DNA of 64,000 nt from a virus (taxonomy: Duplodnaviria > Caudoviricetes). Positions 4,907 through 64,000 of the stretch are shown here, piece after piece. Location: the IMG/VR virus record IMGVR_UViG_3300027734_003164, positions 152,576-216,575 of that record. One strand, given 5' to 3'. The first letter of the stretch is position 1. Every line of letters starts with the position of its first letter. Position numbers and translations under genes: made by a program. The notes beneath the pieces are model-generated. The model saw nothing but the letters and a program-made list of their open reading frames with translations. It did no database searches and had not been told where the DNA came from.

Positions 4907-7731
4907 TCGAAACTAAGAGCCATTAAATCCCCATCCACATCAAATTCAAAGTATTCATCAATATCCACCTTTTTTTGTTGTACGACAAACTCTTCCATTA
5001 ACTTTTTGTTGTTTTCAACCCAATCAACATCCACTAAATCAACAGTACCATCTAAATACATATAGTAAGGGTCAATACCTACGTTTTTCCAAAACGTTAA
5101 TTCCATGTCAGATAAAGTTAATACTTCCTCTAATGTATCTTGATGAGCCTCTTTCATTGGGTAACCGCGTACTAATTCAGTTTGAGACTTAGTAAAGATA
5201 GGTCTATCTTTTGGGTCTTCAATTAAAATGTCTTCTCTGATTTCAGGTCTATAAACAACAAGTAATGGTTCGATTCTTTTGTTAAATGCTGCCAAATATC
5301 TTGGAACATTATACTCACCCAATAAATCAGGATTCATTTCAATATCACGTTCATCAATCATATAACAATTCAAAACCAATTCATCTTTTTTCTTTTGAAC
5401 GTCTCCATGTGATTTTTTCTCACCATTATTAACATAGAAGATAGTATCACCAAGACCTGGATTTTTACCTTCTTTAATCAAAAGTTCCATATGCGCCTGA
5501 CGGGACATCATATTTCCTGCCTTTGTAGTTTTAGTAATGTGAACTTTGTAATCGTCTATTGATTGTTTTACCCGAGCTTTGTTTGCAATTTTTGCCAAAG
5601 GGATTTGTCTATTATAAAGTTTGTCCACATATTCATAGTAAAAATCTAAAAACTCACCACCCTTACCGTCTAACAACATTCTAAGCCCCTTATCCAAAAA
5701 TTCAGCAACATATGTTTGAAGTTTTTTAGATTTAATACTATTTCCTGTAAGTTTTACTTTACCCTTATCTGTAAGAAGTGCATAGTTTTTACGAGCCACA
5801 TTAATTGTTGATGGCCAAACACCGTCAATATCCAATCCCATTTCACCTCGTAAAAATAAATCATTGTATTCTGCAACATCCGCTTCTGCTCCAATATATT
5901 CCTTACCTTCTTTAACCAATCCGTTCAACCCCTTTCCAATATACTTATACTCTTCTCTATCTTGTGGTGTTTCGAAGTTTACACCATCCGTATCCATTAC
6001 GAGAGGAACATAACCTCTTTTCATAAAGAACATAATCATTTGACGTAGGTATTGTCTACCTGTACAAGTAATCTGTTCACCCATATCAATATCACCCCAC
6101 GGAAAAACTTGTGGTGCTGATAATGAACCAAAGAATGCGTTGATAAAGATTTTAATTGGTAATTGTTTTCTGTCGTAAGAAATCGCAAGTTTTGGGTCAA
6201 TAGATTTATATTCACTTGATAAGTTCTTGTATTTAATACGAGTATCACGGAAATACTTTAACATACTTTTCATTGCTCCTGTTACGTCACATTTAGGGAA
6301 TACGTCGTGAACCAACTGAATAGATGGGTATAGTGAAGAGTAGTCAAGTTTCAATACGTTTTTAGAGAACCCAACCTGTACTAAACGAGAAAGACCTCCT
6401 GTAAATTTTCTTTTTTCTAATTTTCTTGGTAATGCTAAGTTATGTTTATATGACCATGCTGCCATAATCATTTTCCATAATGTTGCAGTTCCCATAGTTG
6501 AAAGTCTTTCATATGTTGTTGGTACAAGTTTAGACAATAAGAAGTTTGCTTGATTAAACTGTTCATCAACTATCATCGTTTCATAAAGGTCATCGTCCAA
6601 GTAGTCCTCAATAATTTTTGAACCTGTAACTAATTTATAAACATCATCTCTTCTTTTACATATTTCATCTATTTTTGAATCAAATCCAACTTTCTTATAT
6701 GCTCCGTTTTCTTTGTTCATCCAATATTCAAGATTATCAAAATAAATTTTACCAATCTTATCCCCTTCAACATAAACACGATTTGGTTTTTCTGCTTCAA
6801 TAAACTTGGTAATATACTTCAAAGACCAACTTTTAATGTCTGAGTTGATTGCTTGAGCTCTACGAACCGCATGAGCAATATCAACAATATTATATCCCCA
6901 CATTTGAGTTTGAACGTATGGTTCCATTTCGTTCGCCAACTTTAGAATACCATCTTTTTGTTTTAGTGTATAATCAGGATGTAAGGTCTTGCAGATTTTT
7001 TTGATATTAACTTTTAATATTTCAGCTCTTTTTAGAATAAATGGGAAGTCAAAGAATGCTGAGTTGTAACCCCCAATCAAAGATGGTTTTAACTCATCAA
7101 TAGTCTTAAAGAAGTCGACAATCATTTGTCGTTCTTCATCTTCATTTTGTGCAGATAATAATTTTAGAAAACCACGATTGTCTTTCATCCCAATCAAGAA
7201 TATCTTACTTGTTTTAGGGTCAAGACCTGTGGTCTCAATATCGAATACAAACCTGTGGATTTCATCGTATTCGTCAAAACCTTTGAATAGTCTTTTACTT
7301 TTTTGAATTAAGTATTGTTCTACGGGTGATAATATTTGAATTGAATCTGTGTTGTCTCTACCCCATGGGTCTAATCCTCCACCTTTAAAGAAGTTTACAA
7401 GATTGGAGTATGACTTTGTTGTTTTAACCAAATACCTCAATCCGTTCTCTAAACGTTCATCATCGTGAGTATCAAGTTTTTCTATGATAATACCATTTTC
7501 ACTCATCGCACGTTTTTGTGCGTGTTTGTCGTTCTTGTAAAAGTTTTTACCTTTCAAGTCGCCAACCCAAGCAAATGGAATAAATGTGTCGGGGCGTAAT
7601 AATTTACCCTTAACAGGGTCTTGGATTACTTTATAAATTTTAGATGATTTGTAATCGTATTCGAGTGATACGATATATTTTTCGTCGTCTTCGCCTAATA
7701 AAAAGCGTTCAATTTCTTCTTGTGGAACCAT
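4903..7731 (-). CDS. polB: Family B DNA polymerase
   Basis: ExoI FDIET, region II DYSSLYPS, region III KIFINAFFG, region I MDTDG. 942 aa, no intein motifs seen. Confidence 0.95.
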   Translation of the reverse strand: MVPQEEIERFLLGEDDEKYIVSLEYDYKSSKIYKVIQDPVKGKLLRPDTFIPFAWVGDLKGKNFYKNDKHAQKRAMSENGIIIEKLDTHDDERLENGLRYLVKTTKSYSNLVNFFKGGGLDPWGRDNTDSIQILSPVEQYLIQKSKRLFKGFDEYDEIHRFVFDIETTGLDPKTSKIFLIGMKDNRGFLKLLSAQNEDEERQMIVDFFKTIDELKPSLIGGYNSAFFDFPFILKRAEILKVNIKKICKTLHPDYTLKQKDGILKLANEMEPYVQTQMWGYNIVDIAHAVRRAQAINSDIKSWSLKYITKFIEAEKPNRVYVEGDKIGKIYFDNLEYWMNKENGAYKKVGFDSKIDEICKRRDDVYKLVTGSKIIEDYLDDDLYETMIVDEQFNQANFLLSKLVPTTYERLSTMGTATLWKMIMAAWSYKHNLALPRKLEKRKFTGGLSRLVQVGFSKNVLKLDYSSLYPSIQLVHDVFPKCDVTGAMKSMLKYFRDTRIKYKNLSSEYKSIDPKLAISYDRKQLPIKIFINAFFGSLSAPQVFPWGDIDMGEQITCTGRQYLRQMIMFFMKRGYVPLVMDTDGVNFETPQDREEYKYIGKGLNGLVKEGKEYIGAEADVAEYNDLFLRGEMGLDIDGVWPSTINVARKNYALLTDKGKVKLTGNSIKSKKLQTYVAEFLDKGLRMLLDGKGGEFLDFYYEYVDKLYNRQIPLAKIANKARVKQSIDDYKVHITKTTKAGNMMSRQAHMELLIKEGKNPGLGDTIFYVNNGEKKSHGDVQKKKDELVLNCYMIDERDIEMNPDLLGEYNVPRYLAAFNKRIEPLLVVYRPEIREDILIEDPKDRPIFTKSQTELVRGYPMKEAHQDTLEEVLTLSDMELTFWKNVGIDPYYMYLDGTVDLVDVDWVENNKKLMEEFVVQQKKVDIDEYFEFDVDGDLMALSFD

Positions 7732-58744: not shown

Positions 58745-58764
58745 AACTATAAATATACGAAACA

Positions 58765-58788
58765 AAAAATCCACCCGAAGGTGGATTT
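58765..58788 (-). terminator. Intrinsic terminator after the UVR gene
   Basis: AAATCCACC-TTCG-GGTGGATTT followed by Ts on the minus strand (cUUCGg tetraloop). Confidence 0.9.
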
Positions 58789-58790
58789 AA

Positions 58791-59153
58791 TTATTTGAGA
58801 GAATTAATCTTATCACGATATTGTATCGCCCTTTCAAAGTCTTGGTTTCGAATACATTCGCCCAACTTAAACTTTAACTTTGATAGCTCTTCTTTGTTCT
58901 TTTCTAACTTTTTAATTTCATCTCTTAAATTTACTGCTTCTTCAAAATTTTCTTCTTTAATTGCCAAGCTTAATTTTTCTTTCAATACATATAATTCATC
59001 TGACGGACTTGTATTGTTAAAATTTCTTGTCATATAAGACATAGAATACAAACCATCTGGCGAACTATAAGTATTTTTAGTCCAGTTTTTATCATCAAAT
59101 GATGAAGAAAAAAATTCATTAAATAATTTATCAAATTCGTTCCAATTAAACAT
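58791..59153 (-). CDS. Double UVR (UvrB/C coiled-coil) motif protein
   Basis: LKEKLSLAIKEENFEEAVNLRDEI and LKFKLGECIRNQDFERAIQYRDKI. Confidence 0.85.
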   Translation of the reverse strand: MFNWNEFDKLFNEFFSSSFDDKNWTKNTYSSPDGLYSMSYMTRNFNNTSPSDELYVLKEKLSLAIKEENFEEAVNLRDEIKKLEKNKEELSKLKFKLGECIRNQDFERAIQYRDKINSLK

Positions 59154-59219
59154 TTTTTATTATTTTATAGGTTTATTTTGGTTTTTCTTATATGAAAAAT
59201 TATACCAATTAATATTATA

Positions 59220-59274
59220 TGACAAAATGTCAGTATAATCAAAATATTTAATAAATCAAACTGACAATATGACA
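59220..59274. promoter_or_regulatory. Pair of putative operator/UAS sites
   Basis: Palindrome TGACA-AAA-TGTCA (59220-59232) and near-copy TGACA-ATA-TGACA (59262-59274), 42 bp apart. Confidence 0.55.
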
Positions 59275-59322
59275 ATTATGGACTTTTTAAAATAAAGTTA
59301 TTATTATTAAGAAAAAAACAAT

Positions 59323-61359
59323 ATGATTGAATCAGCAGACAACAACGAAAAAGACAAAGGAAAAAAAACTGAAACCGCGGGTAAAACACCCGTGTTGGAT
59401 AATTTTTCAAGAGACTTAATAAAAGCCGCGGAAGAGGGTAAGTTGGACCCTATTATTGGAAGAGAACAAGAAATTAATAGGATTGCACAAATTCTATCAA
59501 GAAGGAAAAAAAATAACCCAATTATTATTGGTGAACCAGGTTGTGGAAAAACTGCAATTGTAGAAGGATTGGCCAAAAAAATATTTGAGGGTGATTGTCC
59601 TCAGAATTTAGTTAGTAAAAGAATAGTTTCTTTAGATTTAAATTCTGTGGTTGCAGGAACAAAGTATAGAGGTCAGTTTGAAGAAAGAATGAAAGTTATA
59701 ATTGAAGAATTATATGCAAATCCTGACATAATTATTTTTATAGATGAAATCCATACTATGATTGGTGCTGGAAACGCATCGGGTTCCATGGATGCGTCAA
59801 ATATATTTAAACCCGCATTGTCAAGAGGAGAAATTCAATGTATTGGGGCAACAACATTAGAAGAATATAGAAAAAATATTGAAAAAGATGGGGCACTTGA
59901 AAGAAGGTTTCAAAAAATTGTTGTAGACCCATCAACTAAAGAAGAAACTTTAGAAATACTAAAACAATCCAAAGACCGTTACGAAAAACACCATAAAGTT
60001 AGATATAGTGAAGATATTTTAAAACTATGTGTTGAATTGGCCGATAGATATATTACCGACAGAGAATTTCCCGACAAGGCGTTTGATATACTTGATGAGG
60101 TTGGGGCAAGAAGTCAGGTGGAAATCAAATTACCTGAATCTATTGAAAAATTAAAAAAAGAAGCTCAAGAAATAAAAGAACAAAAAATAGAAGTTATTAA
60201 TAAACAAAAGTATGAAGAGGCTGCAAATTTAAGAGATAGAGAAAGAAAAGTTTTATCAGAACTTCAAAAAGAAAAGGAAGATTTTGAAAAAAACAGAGAC
60301 CTTTACCGAAAAGAAGTTACAGAAGAAATTGTTTATGATGTTACTTCTTTGATGACAAAAATTCCTATTAATAAAATTACCACCGATGAATCAATTCAAT
60401 TAGCATCATTAAATGAAGTATTAAATACAAGAGTAATTGGTCAAAATGAAGCGGTTTCCAAAATTGCAAGAGCAATACAAAGAAATAAAGTTGGTTTAAA
60501 TGACCCAAAAAAACCAATATTTAGTGGATTATTAATTGGTAATTCAGGTGTTGGTAAAACTGAATTGGCAAAACAGTTGGCAAAACATATGTTTAATAGT
60601 GAAGACGCACTTATTAGATTGGATATGAGTGAATTTTCAGATAAAATAGCAACATCAAAATTAACAGGGACATCACCAGGATATGTTGGGTATGAAGACG
60701 GTTCACCATTTTTGAACAAAATTAAAAACAAACCTTATTCTGTTATTTTATTGGATGAAATAGAAAAGGCTCACCCAGAAATTTTTAATGTATTTTTACA
60801 AATGTTAGATGAAGGGTTTTTAACAGATGGTCACGGTAGAAAAATTAACTTTAAAAATTGTATTATTCTTATGACATCAAATGTTGGAACAAGAGTGGTT
60901 CAACAATTTGGTACAGGTGTTGGGTTCTCAACATCACATAAAGAAGAAACAAAAGATGAAGAAATAAAATCTTTATTGGAAAAAGAACTTTTCAAAAAGT
61001 TTGCACCTGAGTTTATCAACAGATTTGATGATATTGTATACTTTAAAGACTTGAATGACAATGATTTGATGAAAATTTTGAATTTAGAACTTGAAAAATT
61101 ATATACAAGAGTTTCTAACCTTGAATTTAATGTTGAAGTTGATGAATCACTAAAAAATCACTTAATTAAAGTGGGTACTGATACTAGATTTGGAGCTCGT
61201 ATTTTGAAAAGAACGGTTCAAAAGTGGGTAGATGATGCAATTACGGAAAAAATACTTTCAGACAAACCAGAAAAAAACTCCACATTCTTACTGTCGTATG
61301 ATGAAAAAAATAATAAAACAGAAGTTAAAATAAAAAAACCAACAAAACGAAAGAAATAA
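59323..61359 (+). CDS. clpC: ClpC-type AAA+ unfoldase lacking the N-terminal domain
   Basis: Walker A GEPGCGKT and GNSGVGKT, Walker B FIDEIH and LLDEIEK, pore loops KYRG and GYVG, UVR middle domain, ClpP-docking VGF loop. Confidence 0.92.
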   Translation: MIESADNNEKDKGKKTETAGKTPVLDNFSRDLIKAAEEGKLDPIIGREQEINRIAQILSRRKKNNPIIIGEPGCGKTAIVEGLAKKIFEGDCPQNLVSKRIVSLDLNSVVAGTKYRGQFEERMKVIIEELYANPDIIIFIDEIHTMIGAGNASGSMDASNIFKPALSRGEIQCIGATTLEEYRKNIEKDGALERRFQKIVVDPSTKEETLEILKQSKDRYEKHHKVRYSEDILKLCVELADRYITDREFPDKAFDILDEVGARSQVEIKLPESIEKLKKEAQEIKEQKIEVINKQKYEEAANLRDRERKVLSELQKEKEDFEKNRDLYRKEVTEEIVYDVTSLMTKIPINKITTDESIQLASLNEVLNTRVIGQNEAVSKIARAIQRNKVGLNDPKKPIFSGLLIGNSGVGKTELAKQLAKHMFNSEDALIRLDMSEFSDKIATSKLTGTSPGYVGYEDGSPFLNKIKNKPYSVILLDEIEKAHPEIFNVFLQMLDEGFLTDGHGRKINFKNCIILMTSNVGTRVVQQFGTGVGFSTSHKEETKDEEIKSLLEKELFKKFAPEFINRFDDIVYFKDLNDNDLMKILNLELEKLYTRVSNLEFNVEVDESLKNHLIKVGTDTRFGARILKRTVQKWVDDAITEKILSDKPEKNSTFLLSYDEKNNKTEVKIKKPTKRKK

Positions 61360-61360
61360 T

Positions 61361-61391
61361 TTTGCAAATGTTGAAAACTTTTGTACATTTG
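61361..61391 (+). promoter_or_regulatory. Canonical Bacteroidota sigma70 promoter for the peptidase
   Basis: TTTG (61361-61364) - 19 nt - TACATTTG (61384-61391). Confidence 0.8.
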
Positions 61392-61405
61392 TAAAAAACA
61401 AAATA

Positions 61406-62467
61406 ATGAACCTACAAAAATTCAAAGAACTCCTTTCAGTACCATCGAAAACATATCAAGAAGAAGATATGGTAGAACATATTTGTGATGAGTTGGAAAA
61501 AATTCATGGAGTTACGTTTTATCGTGACAATATGATGAACATATATGCAACAAAGGGGATATTAGAAGAAGGTGAATTTTATCCCATGTTTATTGCTCAC
61601 ACTGATACGGTTCACAACAAAATAGATAAGATTATTGTTAAAGAAGAAAAATTAAAACGACCACACACTTTTGGTAAAAATTTTGACGATACTCTTGTTG
61701 ACGTATTAAAAGCATACGACGTTAATAATTTACCAACAGGTATTGGGGGTGATGACAAATGTGGCATTTTTATTTGTTTAGAATTACTTAAACAATTAGA
61801 CAAAGTAAAAATTGGTTTATTTGTGAGTGAAGAAACAGGTTGTCACGGTTCATCAAAATGTGATGAAACTTTTTTGCAAGATGTAGGTTATATCACACAA
61901 TACGATGCTCCTGGCAACCATTTAATTACCGAGATTTGCTCAGGTGTTCGTTTATTTGAACGGGATAGTGAATTTTTTACAAAAACATCAAAAGTTATTA
62001 CCGAATCTTTTGGAAATGAAATGTTAGTTCAATCACACCCTTATACTGATATTTCACAGTTAAAGAAAAAAATTGATGTATCTTGCATCAACATGTCTTG
62101 TGGTTATTACAATATGCATTCACCACAAGAGTTCATTTCGATTGAAGATGTGAAATGTGCAATTGAAGCAGGAAAAAATATGGTTAAAGAGTTGGGTCAT
62201 AAAAAATATGAATATCAATATAAACCAATAGTTTATACACCAACAACAATCATGAACTCATTTGCGGAAGGGTTTGATGATGATTTAGATTTTTTTGAAG
62301 TACAAGAAATAGAAAGTCATCATCGTTTACAAACTATTGACGTATATGAGGAAAAAGACGGAATCACACTAACCGATGTTTATGATGATGGGTTTATGTT
62401 TATCCCTGATGAGGATTTAGAAAATTTGTATGAAATTATTAAAGAAAGATTAATTAAAAAATATTAA
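61406..62467 (+). CDS. Zn-dependent peptidase, M20/M28/M42 clan
   Basis: AHTDTV, GGDDKCG, SEETG, QYDAP, GYYNMHS ligand set. Confidence 0.85.
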   Translation: MNLQKFKELLSVPSKTYQEEDMVEHICDELEKIHGVTFYRDNMMNIYATKGILEEGEFYPMFIAHTDTVHNKIDKIIVKEEKLKRPHTFGKNFDDTLVDVLKAYDVNNLPTGIGGDDKCGIFICLELLKQLDKVKIGLFVSEETGCHGSSKCDETFLQDVGYITQYDAPGNHLITEICSGVRLFERDSEFFTKTSKVITESFGNEMLVQSHPYTDISQLKKKIDVSCINMSCGYYNMHSPQEFISIEDVKCAIEAGKNMVKELGHKKYEYQYKPIVYTPTTIMNSFAEGFDDDLDFFEVQEIESHHRLQTIDVYEEKDGITLTDVYDDGFMFIPDEDLENLYEIIKERLIKKY

Positions 62468-63609
62468 TCAACATAAGGTATTAAAGGTTCGGTATTCAAC
62501 ATATTTAAAATATATTTTAATGGTGCCGAACCTTTTTTGAGTGGATTCCACGAACTTCTTTTACGTATACCATAATTAACCATCAAACTATCTTTATCGA
62601 CATTTAATATTCTAATTTCATAGTCTCCTGGTATTTGTTTAAATGTGTTAAATCCAATTTTATCATTTATAATATTAATTATTTGAAAGTATTTTTTCGT
62701 TTTTTCTTTTCCACCTTCTTCAATCATATTTTCCAATTCTTCTTCTAATCCTTCCAAAACTCTTACACTTCTTTTATTAAATTCGTTATAAAAAACATCA
62801 GCATCCCAAGCCTCATATTGAATTTCATAATATTCAGGAACGTGTGTTCTAACTTCTTTTTCTATCGCCTTAAATAATATATCCATCAAGCAATCGTCAG
62901 GTGTTCCATATCTTACAAATAACATAATTGCATCCCCCCAATTTAAAAAATACTTCCAATAACAATTACTTGATTGGTTTTCGATTCCAACAACAGATAA
63001 ACAATTACAATATATATCATCAATATATTTAGGTACTGCTGCATCTGTTGCCATTTCACTTGCGTATGCATACGCCTCAATTAAATCATCTTTTGTTCTA
63101 TTACTTACAGATTCAATAAAGTCTAATATCTTTTCTGACTCTTTACCTTGTTTCCATTTGATTTGGTCATTAACCACTTCAAATTCTTTTAATAAGTTTG
63201 GTTGATATATTTTTAATATGTTATATAAAACTTTTAATGATTCACCCTTCAAATTTTCTAACACATATCCTTCGTCCCAATCTTCACTAGCTCTATCCCA
63301 ATAATCCCATTCCCATGAACCTCTACGCATAGAATCTAAGTATCCTGCTTCATACCAACCGTCACTACCTTCATCACCATAAGTTTCTTTGAAAAAAAAT
63401 CTTAAATAGTCTTCTAATCCTTCATGGAAAGTAAAAGTTATACCATCATAACTTACTTCATAAAAGTCTGAATAATCTTCACCATCACATTCATCAAAAT
63501 CAGTATAATAAGGGTCAATCTTTTTTTTGTTAATAGCAAGAATTTTTTGATAGTCAGTTAATTCAACATCATCTTCCTCTTCTTCAAAAATTTTTGAAAA
63601 TTTATTCAT
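62464..63609 (-). CDS. Acidic hypothetical late protein
   Basis: 381-aa ORF; late motif 5 nt upstream; N-terminal KIFE followed by an acidic run. Confidence 0.7.
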   Translation of the reverse strand: MNKFSKIFEEEEDDVELTDYQKILAINKKKIDPYYTDFDECDGEDYSDFYEVSYDGITFTFHEGLEDYLRFFFKETYGDEGSDGWYEAGYLDSMRRGSWEWDYWDRASEDWDEGYVLENLKGESLKVLYNILKIYQPNLLKEFEVVNDQIKWKQGKESEKILDFIESVSNRTKDDLIEAYAYASEMATDAAVPKYIDDIYCNCLSVVGIENQSSNCYWKYFLNWGDAIMLFVRYGTPDDCLMDILFKAIEKEVRTHVPEYYEIQYEAWDADVFYNEFNKRSVRVLEGLEEELENMIEEGGKEKTKKYFQIINIINDKIGFNTFKQIPGDYEIRILNVDKDSLMVNYGIRKRSSWNPLKKGSAPLKYILNMLNTEPLIPYVD

Positions 63610-63624
63610 ATATTTATAAATATA

Positions 63625-63655
63625 TTGTGAAGTACAAATATTTGTATTATATTTG
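63625..63655 (+). promoter_or_regulatory. Bacteroidota sigma70 promoter for tmRNA
   Basis: TTG (63625-63627) - 20 nt - TATATTTG (63648-63655). Confidence 0.75.
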
Positions 63656-63661
63656 TTTTAT

Positions 63662-63673
63662 AGTTCTTTGAAA
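63662..63673 (+). promoter_or_regulatory. boxA antitermination element
   Basis: AGTTCTTTGAAA directly downstream of the promoter and upstream of the tmRNA, matching the rRNA-operon boxA of many bacteria. Confidence 0.65.
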
Positions 63674-63692
63674 ATAGTCATTTAAGATATAT

Positions 63693-64000
63693 GGGCCTAT
63701 ATTGGAATTGACGGGCGTTGGTTGAATAAAAGAAGCATGTCGGGACTGAATTAATCTCGTTAAAAACTGATTCAAAAAACAACTGGCAATGTGCTAAACA
63801 ACCTTGAGACTTTGGGACTTATCTCAACTCAAGAAGTTACTGTAGCTTAATTAAGATACGGAAACGGGGGGTCGGCAGACATATAACCTAGCAACAGAAG
63901 TCGTAGTTGTGGTGGATTACTATTGAACCCTAAATCGAATGGTAACCATTGGTTGTTGATTTACGATGGTGAAGAACAAATCAACTATTTTGGAATATTA
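63693..64000 (+). ncRNA. ssrA: tmRNA (3' end beyond the window)
   Basis: 5' GGGCCTA..TTGGAATTGACGGG; conserved GCATGTCGGG; pseudoknot PK1 (CGGGA/TCTCG, TGAATTA/TGATTCA); resume context ACAACT-GGC; tag ORF 63785-63850. Confidence 0.92.

Follow-up and report, generated by a model that had tools for sequence, protein, structure and literature searches.

Layout and source of the region

The viral DNA considered here is a stretch of 64,000 nucleotides (nt), referred to below as the window, which covers positions 152,576-216,575 of the IMG/VR record IMGVR_UViG_3300027734_003164. Our analysis concerns its positions 58791-64000, where the listing of open reading frames (ORFs) and the family searches give five genes and one RNA. 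A first-pass annotation had named four parts in this region, namely a double-UVR protein, a ClpC unfoldase, a peptidase and a transfer-messenger RNA (tmRNA), and had joined them into a single line of ribosome rescue and proteolysis. All four parts are present where they had been placed, as judged from family searches, alignments and a fold match, and a fifth conserved gene that had gone unmentioned, orf381, lies between the peptidase gene and the tmRNA. As will be argued below, we lean toward seeing in this region an accessory island with a common theme, and not a single pathway.

The comparison draws on relatives of the phage ClpC in IMG/VR. A close relative is encoded in 417 stretches, and 80 loci were kept, most of them at 82-99% identity; the exact 26-mer that codes for part of the tmRNA tag is present in 21 IMG/VR stretches. 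Two related records of 292 kb and 281 kb, with CheckV completeness of 99% and 96%, are called near-complete here. The order clpC-peptidase-orf381-tmRNA is kept in this clade wherever the contigs reach far enough, and the same is true of the unrelated upstream genes orf447 and orf308. The sequencing runs that hold the stretch are freshwater and lake metagenomes from many studies. Because the cellular ClpC proteins nearest to that of the phage, at 50-59% identity, belong to Bacteroidota (Chitinophagales, Saprospirales and Bacteroidales), and because promoter boxes of the TAnnTTTG type are found in the region, the host of this freshwater jumbo phage of about 290 kb is probably a member of the Bacteroidota.

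A ClpC without its N-domain

The clpC gene (59323..61359, + strand) encodes a protein of 678 amino acids (aa) in which Pfam, alignment and PHROG 4871 delineate a D1 ring, an M-domain with a UVR motif, a D2 ring and a VGF loop at about residues 533-535. The protein aligns to residues 149-805 of Staphylococcus aureus ClpC (E 1e-196), with a start about ten residues before the position of residue 149, and it matches PHROG 4871 from profile position 158 onward. The Pfam families found on it are AAA, AAA_lid_9, AAA_2 and ClpB_D2-small, while Clp_N is not among the matches listed, which comprise the best 25 of 38 Pfam families. The nearest ClpC proteins of Bacteroidota are full-length, at 854-872 aa. 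Since the N-domain is missing, the phage protein is to be regarded as a truncated ClpC-type ATPase, and not as a canonical ClpC. In bacterial ClpC the N-domain carries the docking sites for MecA, McsB and phospho-arginine.

The remainder of the protein is well preserved. Phage and bacterial ClpC sequences do not differ in either Walker A/B set, in the KYRG and GYVG pore loops or in G534-F535 of the VGF loop, and the invariant columns include G70-K76, D141-E142, K114-G117, G406-T413, D478-E479 and G453-G456. With these motifs and its arginine fingers, the pair of AAA+ modules agrees with that of a class I Hsp100/Clp ATPase. The ClpP-docking tripeptide is found within a GVGF at about residues 532-535, in which G534 and F535 do not vary in phage or bacterial sequences. 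The M-domain is of the short kind with a UVR motif: it aligns without gaps to residues 405-470 of S. aureus ClpC, and the Pfam UVR family matches the ClpC frame in relatives. An aromatic Tyr presumably stands in this domain at the position of S. aureus Phe436. Judged by these alignments, the catalytic sites of the phage ClpC are intact and the N-domain is lost, so the annotated picture of an N-domain-less ClpC with intact ATPase sites and a ClpP-docking loop holds. A tblastn search found no ClpP in the window, and none was found in ten records of the clade, two of which are 96-99% complete; any protease activity would therefore need the ClpP of the host.

In six relatives (L073:10001-12496, L075, L081, L068, L070 and L072), clpC is split within Walker A by an intein-like insert, which runs as C...SHN between GEPG and CGKT. 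The insert itself appears to be split: an N-intein of about 24 residues (CVLGDTWIEIEKVSD...) runs into a stop, and after a short spacer a new ATG opens a stretch of about 130 residues that ends in VVSHN before CGKT. It resembles the atypically split inteins that have a very short N-fragment; Pfam assigned its second ORF to no intein family.

The tmRNA and its tag

The tmRNA gene (ssrA; 63693..64000, + strand) is represented in the window by its 5' 308 nt, and about 80 nt of the 3' end lie beyond it. Because the window ends inside the gene, neither ARAGORN nor Rfam at its gathering score reported a tmRNA there. A permissive Rfam search with RF00023 placed 63693-64000 on the first 264 of the 374 model positions, as a match cut at its 3' end (31.2 bits, E 7.7e-10), and the full-length relatives put the assignment on firm ground. 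Over the part that they share, the tmRNA of locus L005 (11697-12084) does not differ from that of the window; it scores 75.7 bits against the Rfam cut-off of 47, and full-length tmRNAs in six relatives reach 74-107 bits against the same cut-off. In the L005 molecule a 7-bp acceptor stem is formed by the 5' GGGCCTA and a TAGGTCC that is followed by ACCA, with a G3:U70 pair and an encoded CCA, and an intrinsic terminator follows immediately downstream. Both the acceptor and the T stems show compensatory changes over 13 tmRNA variants, and G3:U is never lost. The T-loop of the window's tmRNA class is atypical, at 8 nt (AGUCGGAG).

The tag frame (63785..63850, + strand) begins with the resume codon GGC, runs for 21 codons to a TAA stop (63848-63850) and encodes GNVLNNLETLGLISTQEVTVA. 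It is the sole frame that is open in all variants, as had been written in the annotation, and the Rfam alignment places the consensus resume codon on the GGC at 63785. Over the 16 distinct full tag sequences, the variable sites fall on codon positions 1/2/3 as 13/6/16, and six codons vary synonymously only. The length is constant at 21 codons in 16/16 of them, with a stop that alternates among TAA, TAG and TGA at one place, and the residues G1, V3, L4, G11, L12 and the final V-T-V-A are invariant. This coding type of variation, together with the fixed length and the invariant end, indicates that the tag is real and has been selected as a peptide. The short tags that ARAGORN gives for relatives (ATEEVTVA and the like) were dropped in favour of the 21-codon frame, which is open in all variants, has the coding pattern and agrees with the Rfam resume codon.

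The tags of tmRNAs from Chitinophagales, Saprospiraceae and other Bacteroidota, such as GNTQFAMAA, GNYDYALAA and GESNYAMAA, have 9 codons and resume at nt 96-98. The phage tmRNA resumes at nt 93 and its tag starts with Gly-Asn like the tags of Chitinophagales and Saprospiraceae; however, it is more than twice as long as the tags of the candidate hosts and ends in VTVA as against the AMAA or ALAA of the host lineage. The tmRNA with an atypical tag that the annotation had called is thus confirmed by the bit scores of the relatives, the co-varying stems and the conserved tag: it is a functional-looking molecule with a tag unlike those of the candidate hosts.

Two classes of tmRNA occur in the clade. 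One, which includes the window type, has a 5' GGGCCUA and the 8-nt T-loop (L005:12040-12084), and the other has a 5' GGGGGUG and the canonical T-loop GUUCGAG (L023:14715-14752). Tag alleles are mixed between both classes, which implies recombination even within the tmRNA gene. One locus holds a mini-tmRNA of 213 nt (L058:16307-16519, 93.9 bits) that keeps the tRNA-like domain (TLD) and pseudoknot PK1 but not PK2-PK4; its tag frame reads GNVLDNLSVVGLN up to a stop and is without the usual end. The genome in question has an intact ClpC and a UVR gene, and a natural deletion and an assembly artefact are both conceivable. RNA-library contigs from four studies cover the tmRNA; they speak to presence only, as genes cannot be ranked by contig depth and some of the signal may be carried-over DNA, and they are taken as a hint of expression and not as a finding.

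SmpB was found neither in the window (tblastn) nor in five records of the clade, including the two that are 96-99% complete; trans-translation would therefore need the SmpB of the host, and an SmpB gene is present in Chitinophagales genomes. The annotation had held that the window has neither ClpP nor SmpB and that both would have to be borrowed, and the wider search of clade records points the same way.

The exchangeable slot upstream of clpC

The double-UVR protein (58791..59153, - strand) has 120 aa, which comprise an aromatic N-terminal segment, a W..K.Y.S.DG..S.TY segment and two UVR motifs (Pfam UVR twice, E 2.8e-18). It occurs in related loci as 33 distinct variants, all of them divergent from and directly upstream of clpC. 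Against solved structures, the profile of the family matches best the M-domain of ClpC (6emw, E 5.6e-6), then McsA (8wtb, E 1.9e-5) and UvrB (E 0.012), and in BLASTP against the phage ClpC both UVR motifs align to the M-domain, with E 0.002 and 0.014. When the profile was run over 80 bacterial clpC loci it matched, apart from a single McsA-like ORF of a Firmicute, only the ClpC M-domain. Database members of the family number more than 1,300, and the JGI pipeline, where it gives a name, calls them McsA or UvrB; those met with here are on viral-type contigs only. Although the UVR motif matches McsA, no CXXC pairs are seen in the alignment of the UVR protein. A co-fold of ClpC residues 1-345 (D1 and M-domain) with the UVR protein scored 0.16 against a mark of 0.32, without controls, and was counted neither for nor against binding.

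The UVR gene is by no means a fixed member of the region. It is present in 42 of the 75 related loci in which the interval is covered (56%) and missing in the other 33, and it is absent from both near-complete genomes, where the matches to the UVR motif are the ClpC frame in both and a 431-aa frame in the 292-kb genome. A second UVR-motif protein is encoded in relatives by open frames of 424-431 aa far from clpC (G002:C1:209848-209946, G006:C1:95961-96050 and G004:C1:12962-13051). In 12 related loci the slot is taken by a full-length Hsp70/DnaK of 618 aa (Pfam HSP70, E 1.9e-260), again divergent and upstream of clpC; these are L005 (4616-6472, - strand), L004, L006, L008-L011, L018, L019, L060, L062 and L079. 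The ClpC of four of these 12 is 97-99% identical to that of the window, which itself has no DnaK. The UVR and DnaK genes are never found together.

Between the UVR gene and clpC lie two palindromes of the form TGACA-N3-TG(T/A)CA (TGACAAAATGTCA; 59220-59232 and 59262-59274), which form a candidate operator associated with the gene that diverges from clpC on the upstream side. The palindrome, with a TGCCAA element before it, occurs in 37 of 60 distinct clpC upstream regions, and two copies are found even in L083, a locus at 63% identity. In those variants that were compared by hand with the synteny tables, the palindrome tracks the UVR or the DnaK gene, and loci with an empty slot have none. Such a pattern suggests an operator that regulates a chaperone slot.

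Between orf112 and the UVR gene, at the 3' end of the latter, inspection of the sequence shows a GC-rich hairpin with flanking A/T runs that is terminator-like (58766..58788). An Rfam match to Phe_leader at 58761-58885 (28.8 bits against a cut-off of 55) was put down to chance, being merely this terminator hairpin.

The peptidase and orf381

The peptidase gene (61406..62467, + strand) encodes a predicted metallo-aminopeptidase of the MH clan (M20/M42-like) with 353 aa, identified by Pfam, PHROG 4191 and a search of its AlphaFold2 model with Foldseek. Its Pfam scores lie at the cut-offs (M42 23.7 against 23.2 bits, M20 23.5 against 24.6 bits), and it matches PHROG 4191, "peptidase", with E 1e-35. 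At E<=1e-5 the family has 2,422 database proteins, with pipeline names of FrvX-like or tripeptide aminopeptidase. A sequence search of the PDB gave nothing meaningful. The model is of moderate quality, with a predicted local distance difference test (pLDDT) of 69.5, and Foldseek matched it to PepT, TET1-3 (M42), TmPep1050 and DapE with probability 1.00 and E from 3e-9 to 1e-6, which bears out the M20/M42 fold within the M20/M28/M42 clan that had been annotated. The residues H65-x-D67, D116-D117, E142-E143, D215 and H238 are invariant and stand in the expected order; from these motifs, and not from a superposition, they were assigned as the putative five metal ligands and catalytic Glu. The protein has a C-terminal extension, some 100 residues long, that is poorly modelled. 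Enzymes of the TET/M42 and PepT/M20 groups trim oligopeptides.

The gene orf381 (62464..63609, - strand) is divergent from the tmRNA, and synteny, alignments and an AlphaFold2 model describe it as conserved and fast-evolving: it sits between the peptidase gene and the tmRNA in every relative, at 34-95% identity as compared with 72-98% for the peptidase and 82-99% for ClpC. The model is confident (pLDDT 90.6), and no usable match to it came from Pfam, PHROGs, the PDB by Foldseek, VIA-align wide (best Z 5.8, helical), the AlphaFold database clusters or the Atlas feature search.

Promoters and transcription units

Upstream of the peptidase gene lies a Bacteroidota-type promoter-like site, TTTG-N19-TACATTTG (61361..61391, + strand), recognised by motif and conservation; its -7 box is kept in most relatives even where the upstream sequence diverges. 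The tmRNA has a putative promoter (63648..63674, + strand) with the -7 box TATATTTG at 63648-63655 and a leader element GTTCTTTGAAAA at 63663-63674, whose position is conserved over 38 distinct upstream variants. The layout in these variants is a ATATATTG element, a TAT(A/C)TTTG -7 box about 20 nt downstream, and GTTCTTTGAAAA. The last of these is kept in 38/38 variants, with the mature 5' end about 5 nt or about 20 nt beyond it, and we take it to resemble the boxA of rRNA operons.

Position and conservation are what suggest both promoters. It had been proposed that the peptidase gene and the tmRNA carry the same host-type early promoter; the conserved TAnnTTTG -7 box is indeed common to them, but the -33 elements differ (TTTG as against ATTG), and the full Bacteroidota promoter motif is not enriched in the window, with 6 found as against 7.3 expected from shuffles. 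The TAnnTTTG box is not found at clpC. The genes are separate transcription units; both strands are used, and the insertions that lie between the genes vary. The interval between clpC and the peptidase gene, for instance, has insertions of 0 to about 5 kb with genes that have no Pfam match; the one of about 5 kb in L056 (11981-16967) holds six ORFs of 150-594 aa, none with a Pfam match.

Assortment of the parts

If the four parts were one machine, their alleles might be expected to travel together, and the annotation had suggested asking whether the tag co-varies with the type of ClpC. It does not. A tree of 65 ClpC sequences calls for at least 11 changes of tag class and at least 9 changes in the presence of the UVR gene, near-identical ClpC proteins are found with different tag alleles, and the tag class is unrelated to UVR presence. 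The loci L004 and L005 are a case in point: their ClpC, peptidase and orf381 are near-identical, yet their tmRNAs are only 86% alike and have different tag alleles. In L019, the peptidase, orf381 and tmRNA are of the L004 type, yet the ClpC is just 85% identical.

Outside the clade, two uncultured phages of 634 and 642 kb have an N-domain-less ClpC of 707 aa (55% identity) that is flanked by glycosyltransferases, and they have their own ClpP genes and no tmRNA. A further 80 clpC loci of huge phages divide evenly into 40 without the N-domain (644-736 aa) and 40 of full length (811-929 aa). A search of the 10 kb around each of the 80 genes gave no homologue of the UVR family or of orf381, one weak peptidase match and one tmRNA, in locus L287. 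Among 49 whole records of ClpC-bearing huge phages, a tmRNA above the Rfam cut-off is present in 6; of the 10 records with a completeness of 90% or more, 4 have one. Five of the six tmRNAs lie 52-212 kb away from clpC. Five near-complete genomes with an N-domain-less ClpC have no tmRNA.

The single line of four genes is therefore not borne out, with a UVR gene that many loci do without, reshuffled tag and ClpC alleles, separate transcription units, and a ClpC that elsewhere mostly occurs without a tmRNA or far from one. Independent assortment of the genes across genomes was the outcome that had been named as speaking against such a line, and the loss of UVR and the reshuffling of alleles in the clade, together with the distribution outside it, come close to that outcome.

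Interpretation and rival explanations

On balance, and with somewhat more confidence than doubt, we interpret the region as an accessory island, polymorphic and devoted to translation maintenance or ribosome rescue and to protein quality control, made up of separate transcription units and not of one operon. Its members share a theme and a neighbourhood, and they are separately transcribed, exchangeable and dispensable. A dedicated tag-and-destroy machine is not established, and we have no evidence that the phage ClpC reads the tag as a degron.

Under this island reading the parts could work as follows. The tmRNA, by its RNA anatomy, would be charged by the host alanyl-tRNA synthetase at the G3:U70 pair and would, with host SmpB, free stalled ribosomes during a long infection; served by its own host-type promoter, boxA-like leader and terminator, it would add a phage-specific tag of 22 residues, that is, Ala plus the 21 encoded, ending in VTVA. 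The ClpC, having no N-domain to bind adaptors or phospho-arginine, may be an unfoldase free of the adaptor control that acts through that domain, and it would most likely dock on host ClpP through the VGF loop. The slot upstream of clpC would be one for interchangeable helpers, taken by the double-UVR protein or by DnaK, or else left empty. The UVR protein most likely contacts the M-domain of a ClpC, either that of the phage or that of the host, as the likeness of the motifs and the position of the gene suggest. The M20/M42-like aminopeptidase would trim peptides, the generic function that goes with its fold.

Several observations weigh against the island and in favour of a closer functional bond. 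Since a ClpC without its N-domain cannot use adaptors of the MecA or McsB type, a degron recognised directly by the pore is an attractive idea. The invariant VTVA and the fixed tag length imply that something reads the peptide, and a phage-encoded reader would be the simplest partner. Loci retrieved by their tag sequence alone had a clpC as well, given a flank of sufficient length, and this, like the kept order clpC-peptidase-orf381-tmRNA, fits a functional link as well as it fits shared ancestry. Finally, in an unrelated lineage of huge phages, L287 has a tmRNA (6993-7383, - strand) with a 25-codon tag (GNNSTHIFNQYPLVGNTQTQYAVAA) ending in YAVAA, 2.2 kb from a full-length clpC. One rival explanation is the integrated pathway of the annotation, in which a private degron is recognised by the N-domain-less ClpC on host ClpP, the UVR protein is adaptor or activator and the aminopeptidase recycles the products, so that a parallel line runs from rescue through tagging, unfolding and degradation to recycling. 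All the parts indeed lie within 5.2 kb, in an order kept throughout the clade and with a tmRNA close to clpC in a second lineage; the tag is conserved as a peptide that differs from host-lineage tags in length and C-terminus, the VGF and pore loops of ClpC are kept, and the UVR motifs are closest to the ClpC M-domain and McsA. Nevertheless we consider the pathway unlikely, as the UVR protein is dispensable, being missing from 33 of 75 loci and from two near-complete genomes, near-identical ClpC proteins go with different tag alleles, the genes differ in promoters and strands, N-domain-less ClpC is widespread without a tmRNA while the tmRNAs of other huge phages lie far from clpC, and one genome keeps ClpC and UVR next to a 213-nt tmRNA whose tag is without the conserved end. 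The core of the idea can be put more boldly: the 22-residue VTVA tag would be a phage-private degron read by the pore of the N-domain-less ClpC on host ClpP, a channel of its own, insulated from host ClpXP/SspB, with UVR or DnaK tuning the unfoldase through the M-domain. The invariant end of the tag and the adaptor-blind ClpC keep this proposal alive, and the lack of co-variation and the wide independent distribution weaken it; we regard it as decidedly unlikely.

Two other explanations would divide the labour in the region differently. ClpC might be mainly a chaperone or disaggregase for the phage proteome, for example in virion assembly beside the head module, with DnaK and UVR as exchangeable co-chaperones and little or no ClpP, while the tmRNA only rescues ribosomes, with a tag that host proteases read or that is no degron at all. 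The 12 loci with DnaK in the UVR slot, under the same conserved palindrome and in the same divergent layout, speak for such a role, as do the failure to find a phage ClpP in ten clade records and the frequency with which huge phages carry tmRNAs and other genes of translation (PMC7162821). It is opposed by the conserved VGF tripeptide, with its invariant G534 and F535, and by an M-domain of the short ClpC type and not the long ClpB type. Disaggregases of the ClpB type do not have the VGF tripeptide for docking on ClpP, and it is their long M-domain that binds DnaK. Furthermore, the invariance of the tag C-terminus argues for recognition, and altogether we find this account improbable. The remaining explanation makes of the tmRNA a tool for takeover or counter-defence, which would outcompete the host tmRNA for SmpB and swap the host ClpXP degron for a tag of another fate, so as to spare the rescued products or to weaken host systems that detect, or take advantage of, ribosomes that have stalled or mRNAs and tRNAs that have been cleaved. 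With no phage SmpB found, that of the host must be shared, and the tag is unlike the AMAA and ALAA ends of the host lineage; moreover, a TLD-only tmRNA-like molecule of a phage has been discussed as a titrator of SmpB (PMC4131195), and the 213-nt variant keeps the TLD and PK1 with a truncated tag. A full tag frame conserved as a peptide would, however, be needless for a pure decoy, and we hold this to be very unlikely. The accessory island remains the reading that we prefer.

Significance and comparison with known systems

Phage tmRNAs have been catalogued for some 20 years, and to our knowledge the role of their odd tags has been shown by no one. Lakes hold the present clade in abundance, and through it one tag can be studied in dozens of natural variants, each of them beside an unfoldase that is unable to use the known ClpC adaptors. 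If the tag were a private degron, this would be the first viral channel that joins trans-translation to proteolysis, and a ready-made orthogonal pair of degron and unfoldase. If it is not, the region still shows how jumbo phages assemble exchangeable proteostasis cassettes, ClpC with UVR, with DnaK or with neither, while ribosome rescue is maintained with the SmpB of the host. The independent assortment sets the prior for experiments on the tag and ClpC, and it cautions against inferring a pathway from a gene neighbourhood in a single clade. In full-text searches of the literature, no paper came up in which a phage tmRNA is connected with a phage ClpC.

Phage tmRNAs are known from mycobacteriophages of the Bxz1 group and from Bacillus phage G (PMC4131195), and huge phages carry them too, with SmpB reported there as well (PMC7162821). 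The present molecule is like these in being a one-piece tmRNA that belongs to a set of translation genes in a large, lytic-type phage without its own SmpB (PMC4131195, PMC7162821). It differs from them in its Bacteroidota type, in a 21-codon tag that is conserved over dozens of variants, in having its own promoter, boxA-like leader and terminator, and in its fixed clpC neighbourhood in the clade.

The ClpC has its counterpart in the bacterial ClpC-ClpP systems that work with MecA or McsA/McsB, as in Bacillus subtilis and S. aureus (PDB 6em8, 3j3s), with which it has in common the two AAA+ rings, the short M-domain with a UVR motif, the VGF loop and the pore loops. The difference is that the phage ClpC is without the whole N-domain and that its ClpP would come from the host; neither MecA, McsB nor ClpP is encoded alongside it, although no search was aimed at McsB. 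For the UVR protein the nearest known relation is McsA, the activator of the protein-arginine kinase (PDB 8wtb): the UVR motif is of the same subtype (E 1.9e-5), the gene lies beside clpC, and pipelines name family members "McsA". Unlike McsA, the phage protein has no zinc-finger region, a single Cys, and two UVR motifs in place of one. The peptidase shares with the TET/M42 and PepT/M20 aminopeptidases the fold and the motif set of H-x-D, D, E-E, D and H; it differs from them as a very divergent member (PHROG 4191) with no PDB match by sequence, a borderline Pfam score and the C-terminal extension of about 100 residues.

There is also an experimental precedent for a phage protein that acts on a Clp unfoldase. 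Gp53 of phage SPO1 is an adaptor-like protein that was shown by experiment to modulate host ClpCP (PMC6873191). Gp53 and the UVR protein are alike as small phage proteins for which an action on a ClpC has been proposed; the difference is that Gp53 acts on the ClpC of the host, as has been tested experimentally, while the action of the UVR protein on ClpC is a prediction.

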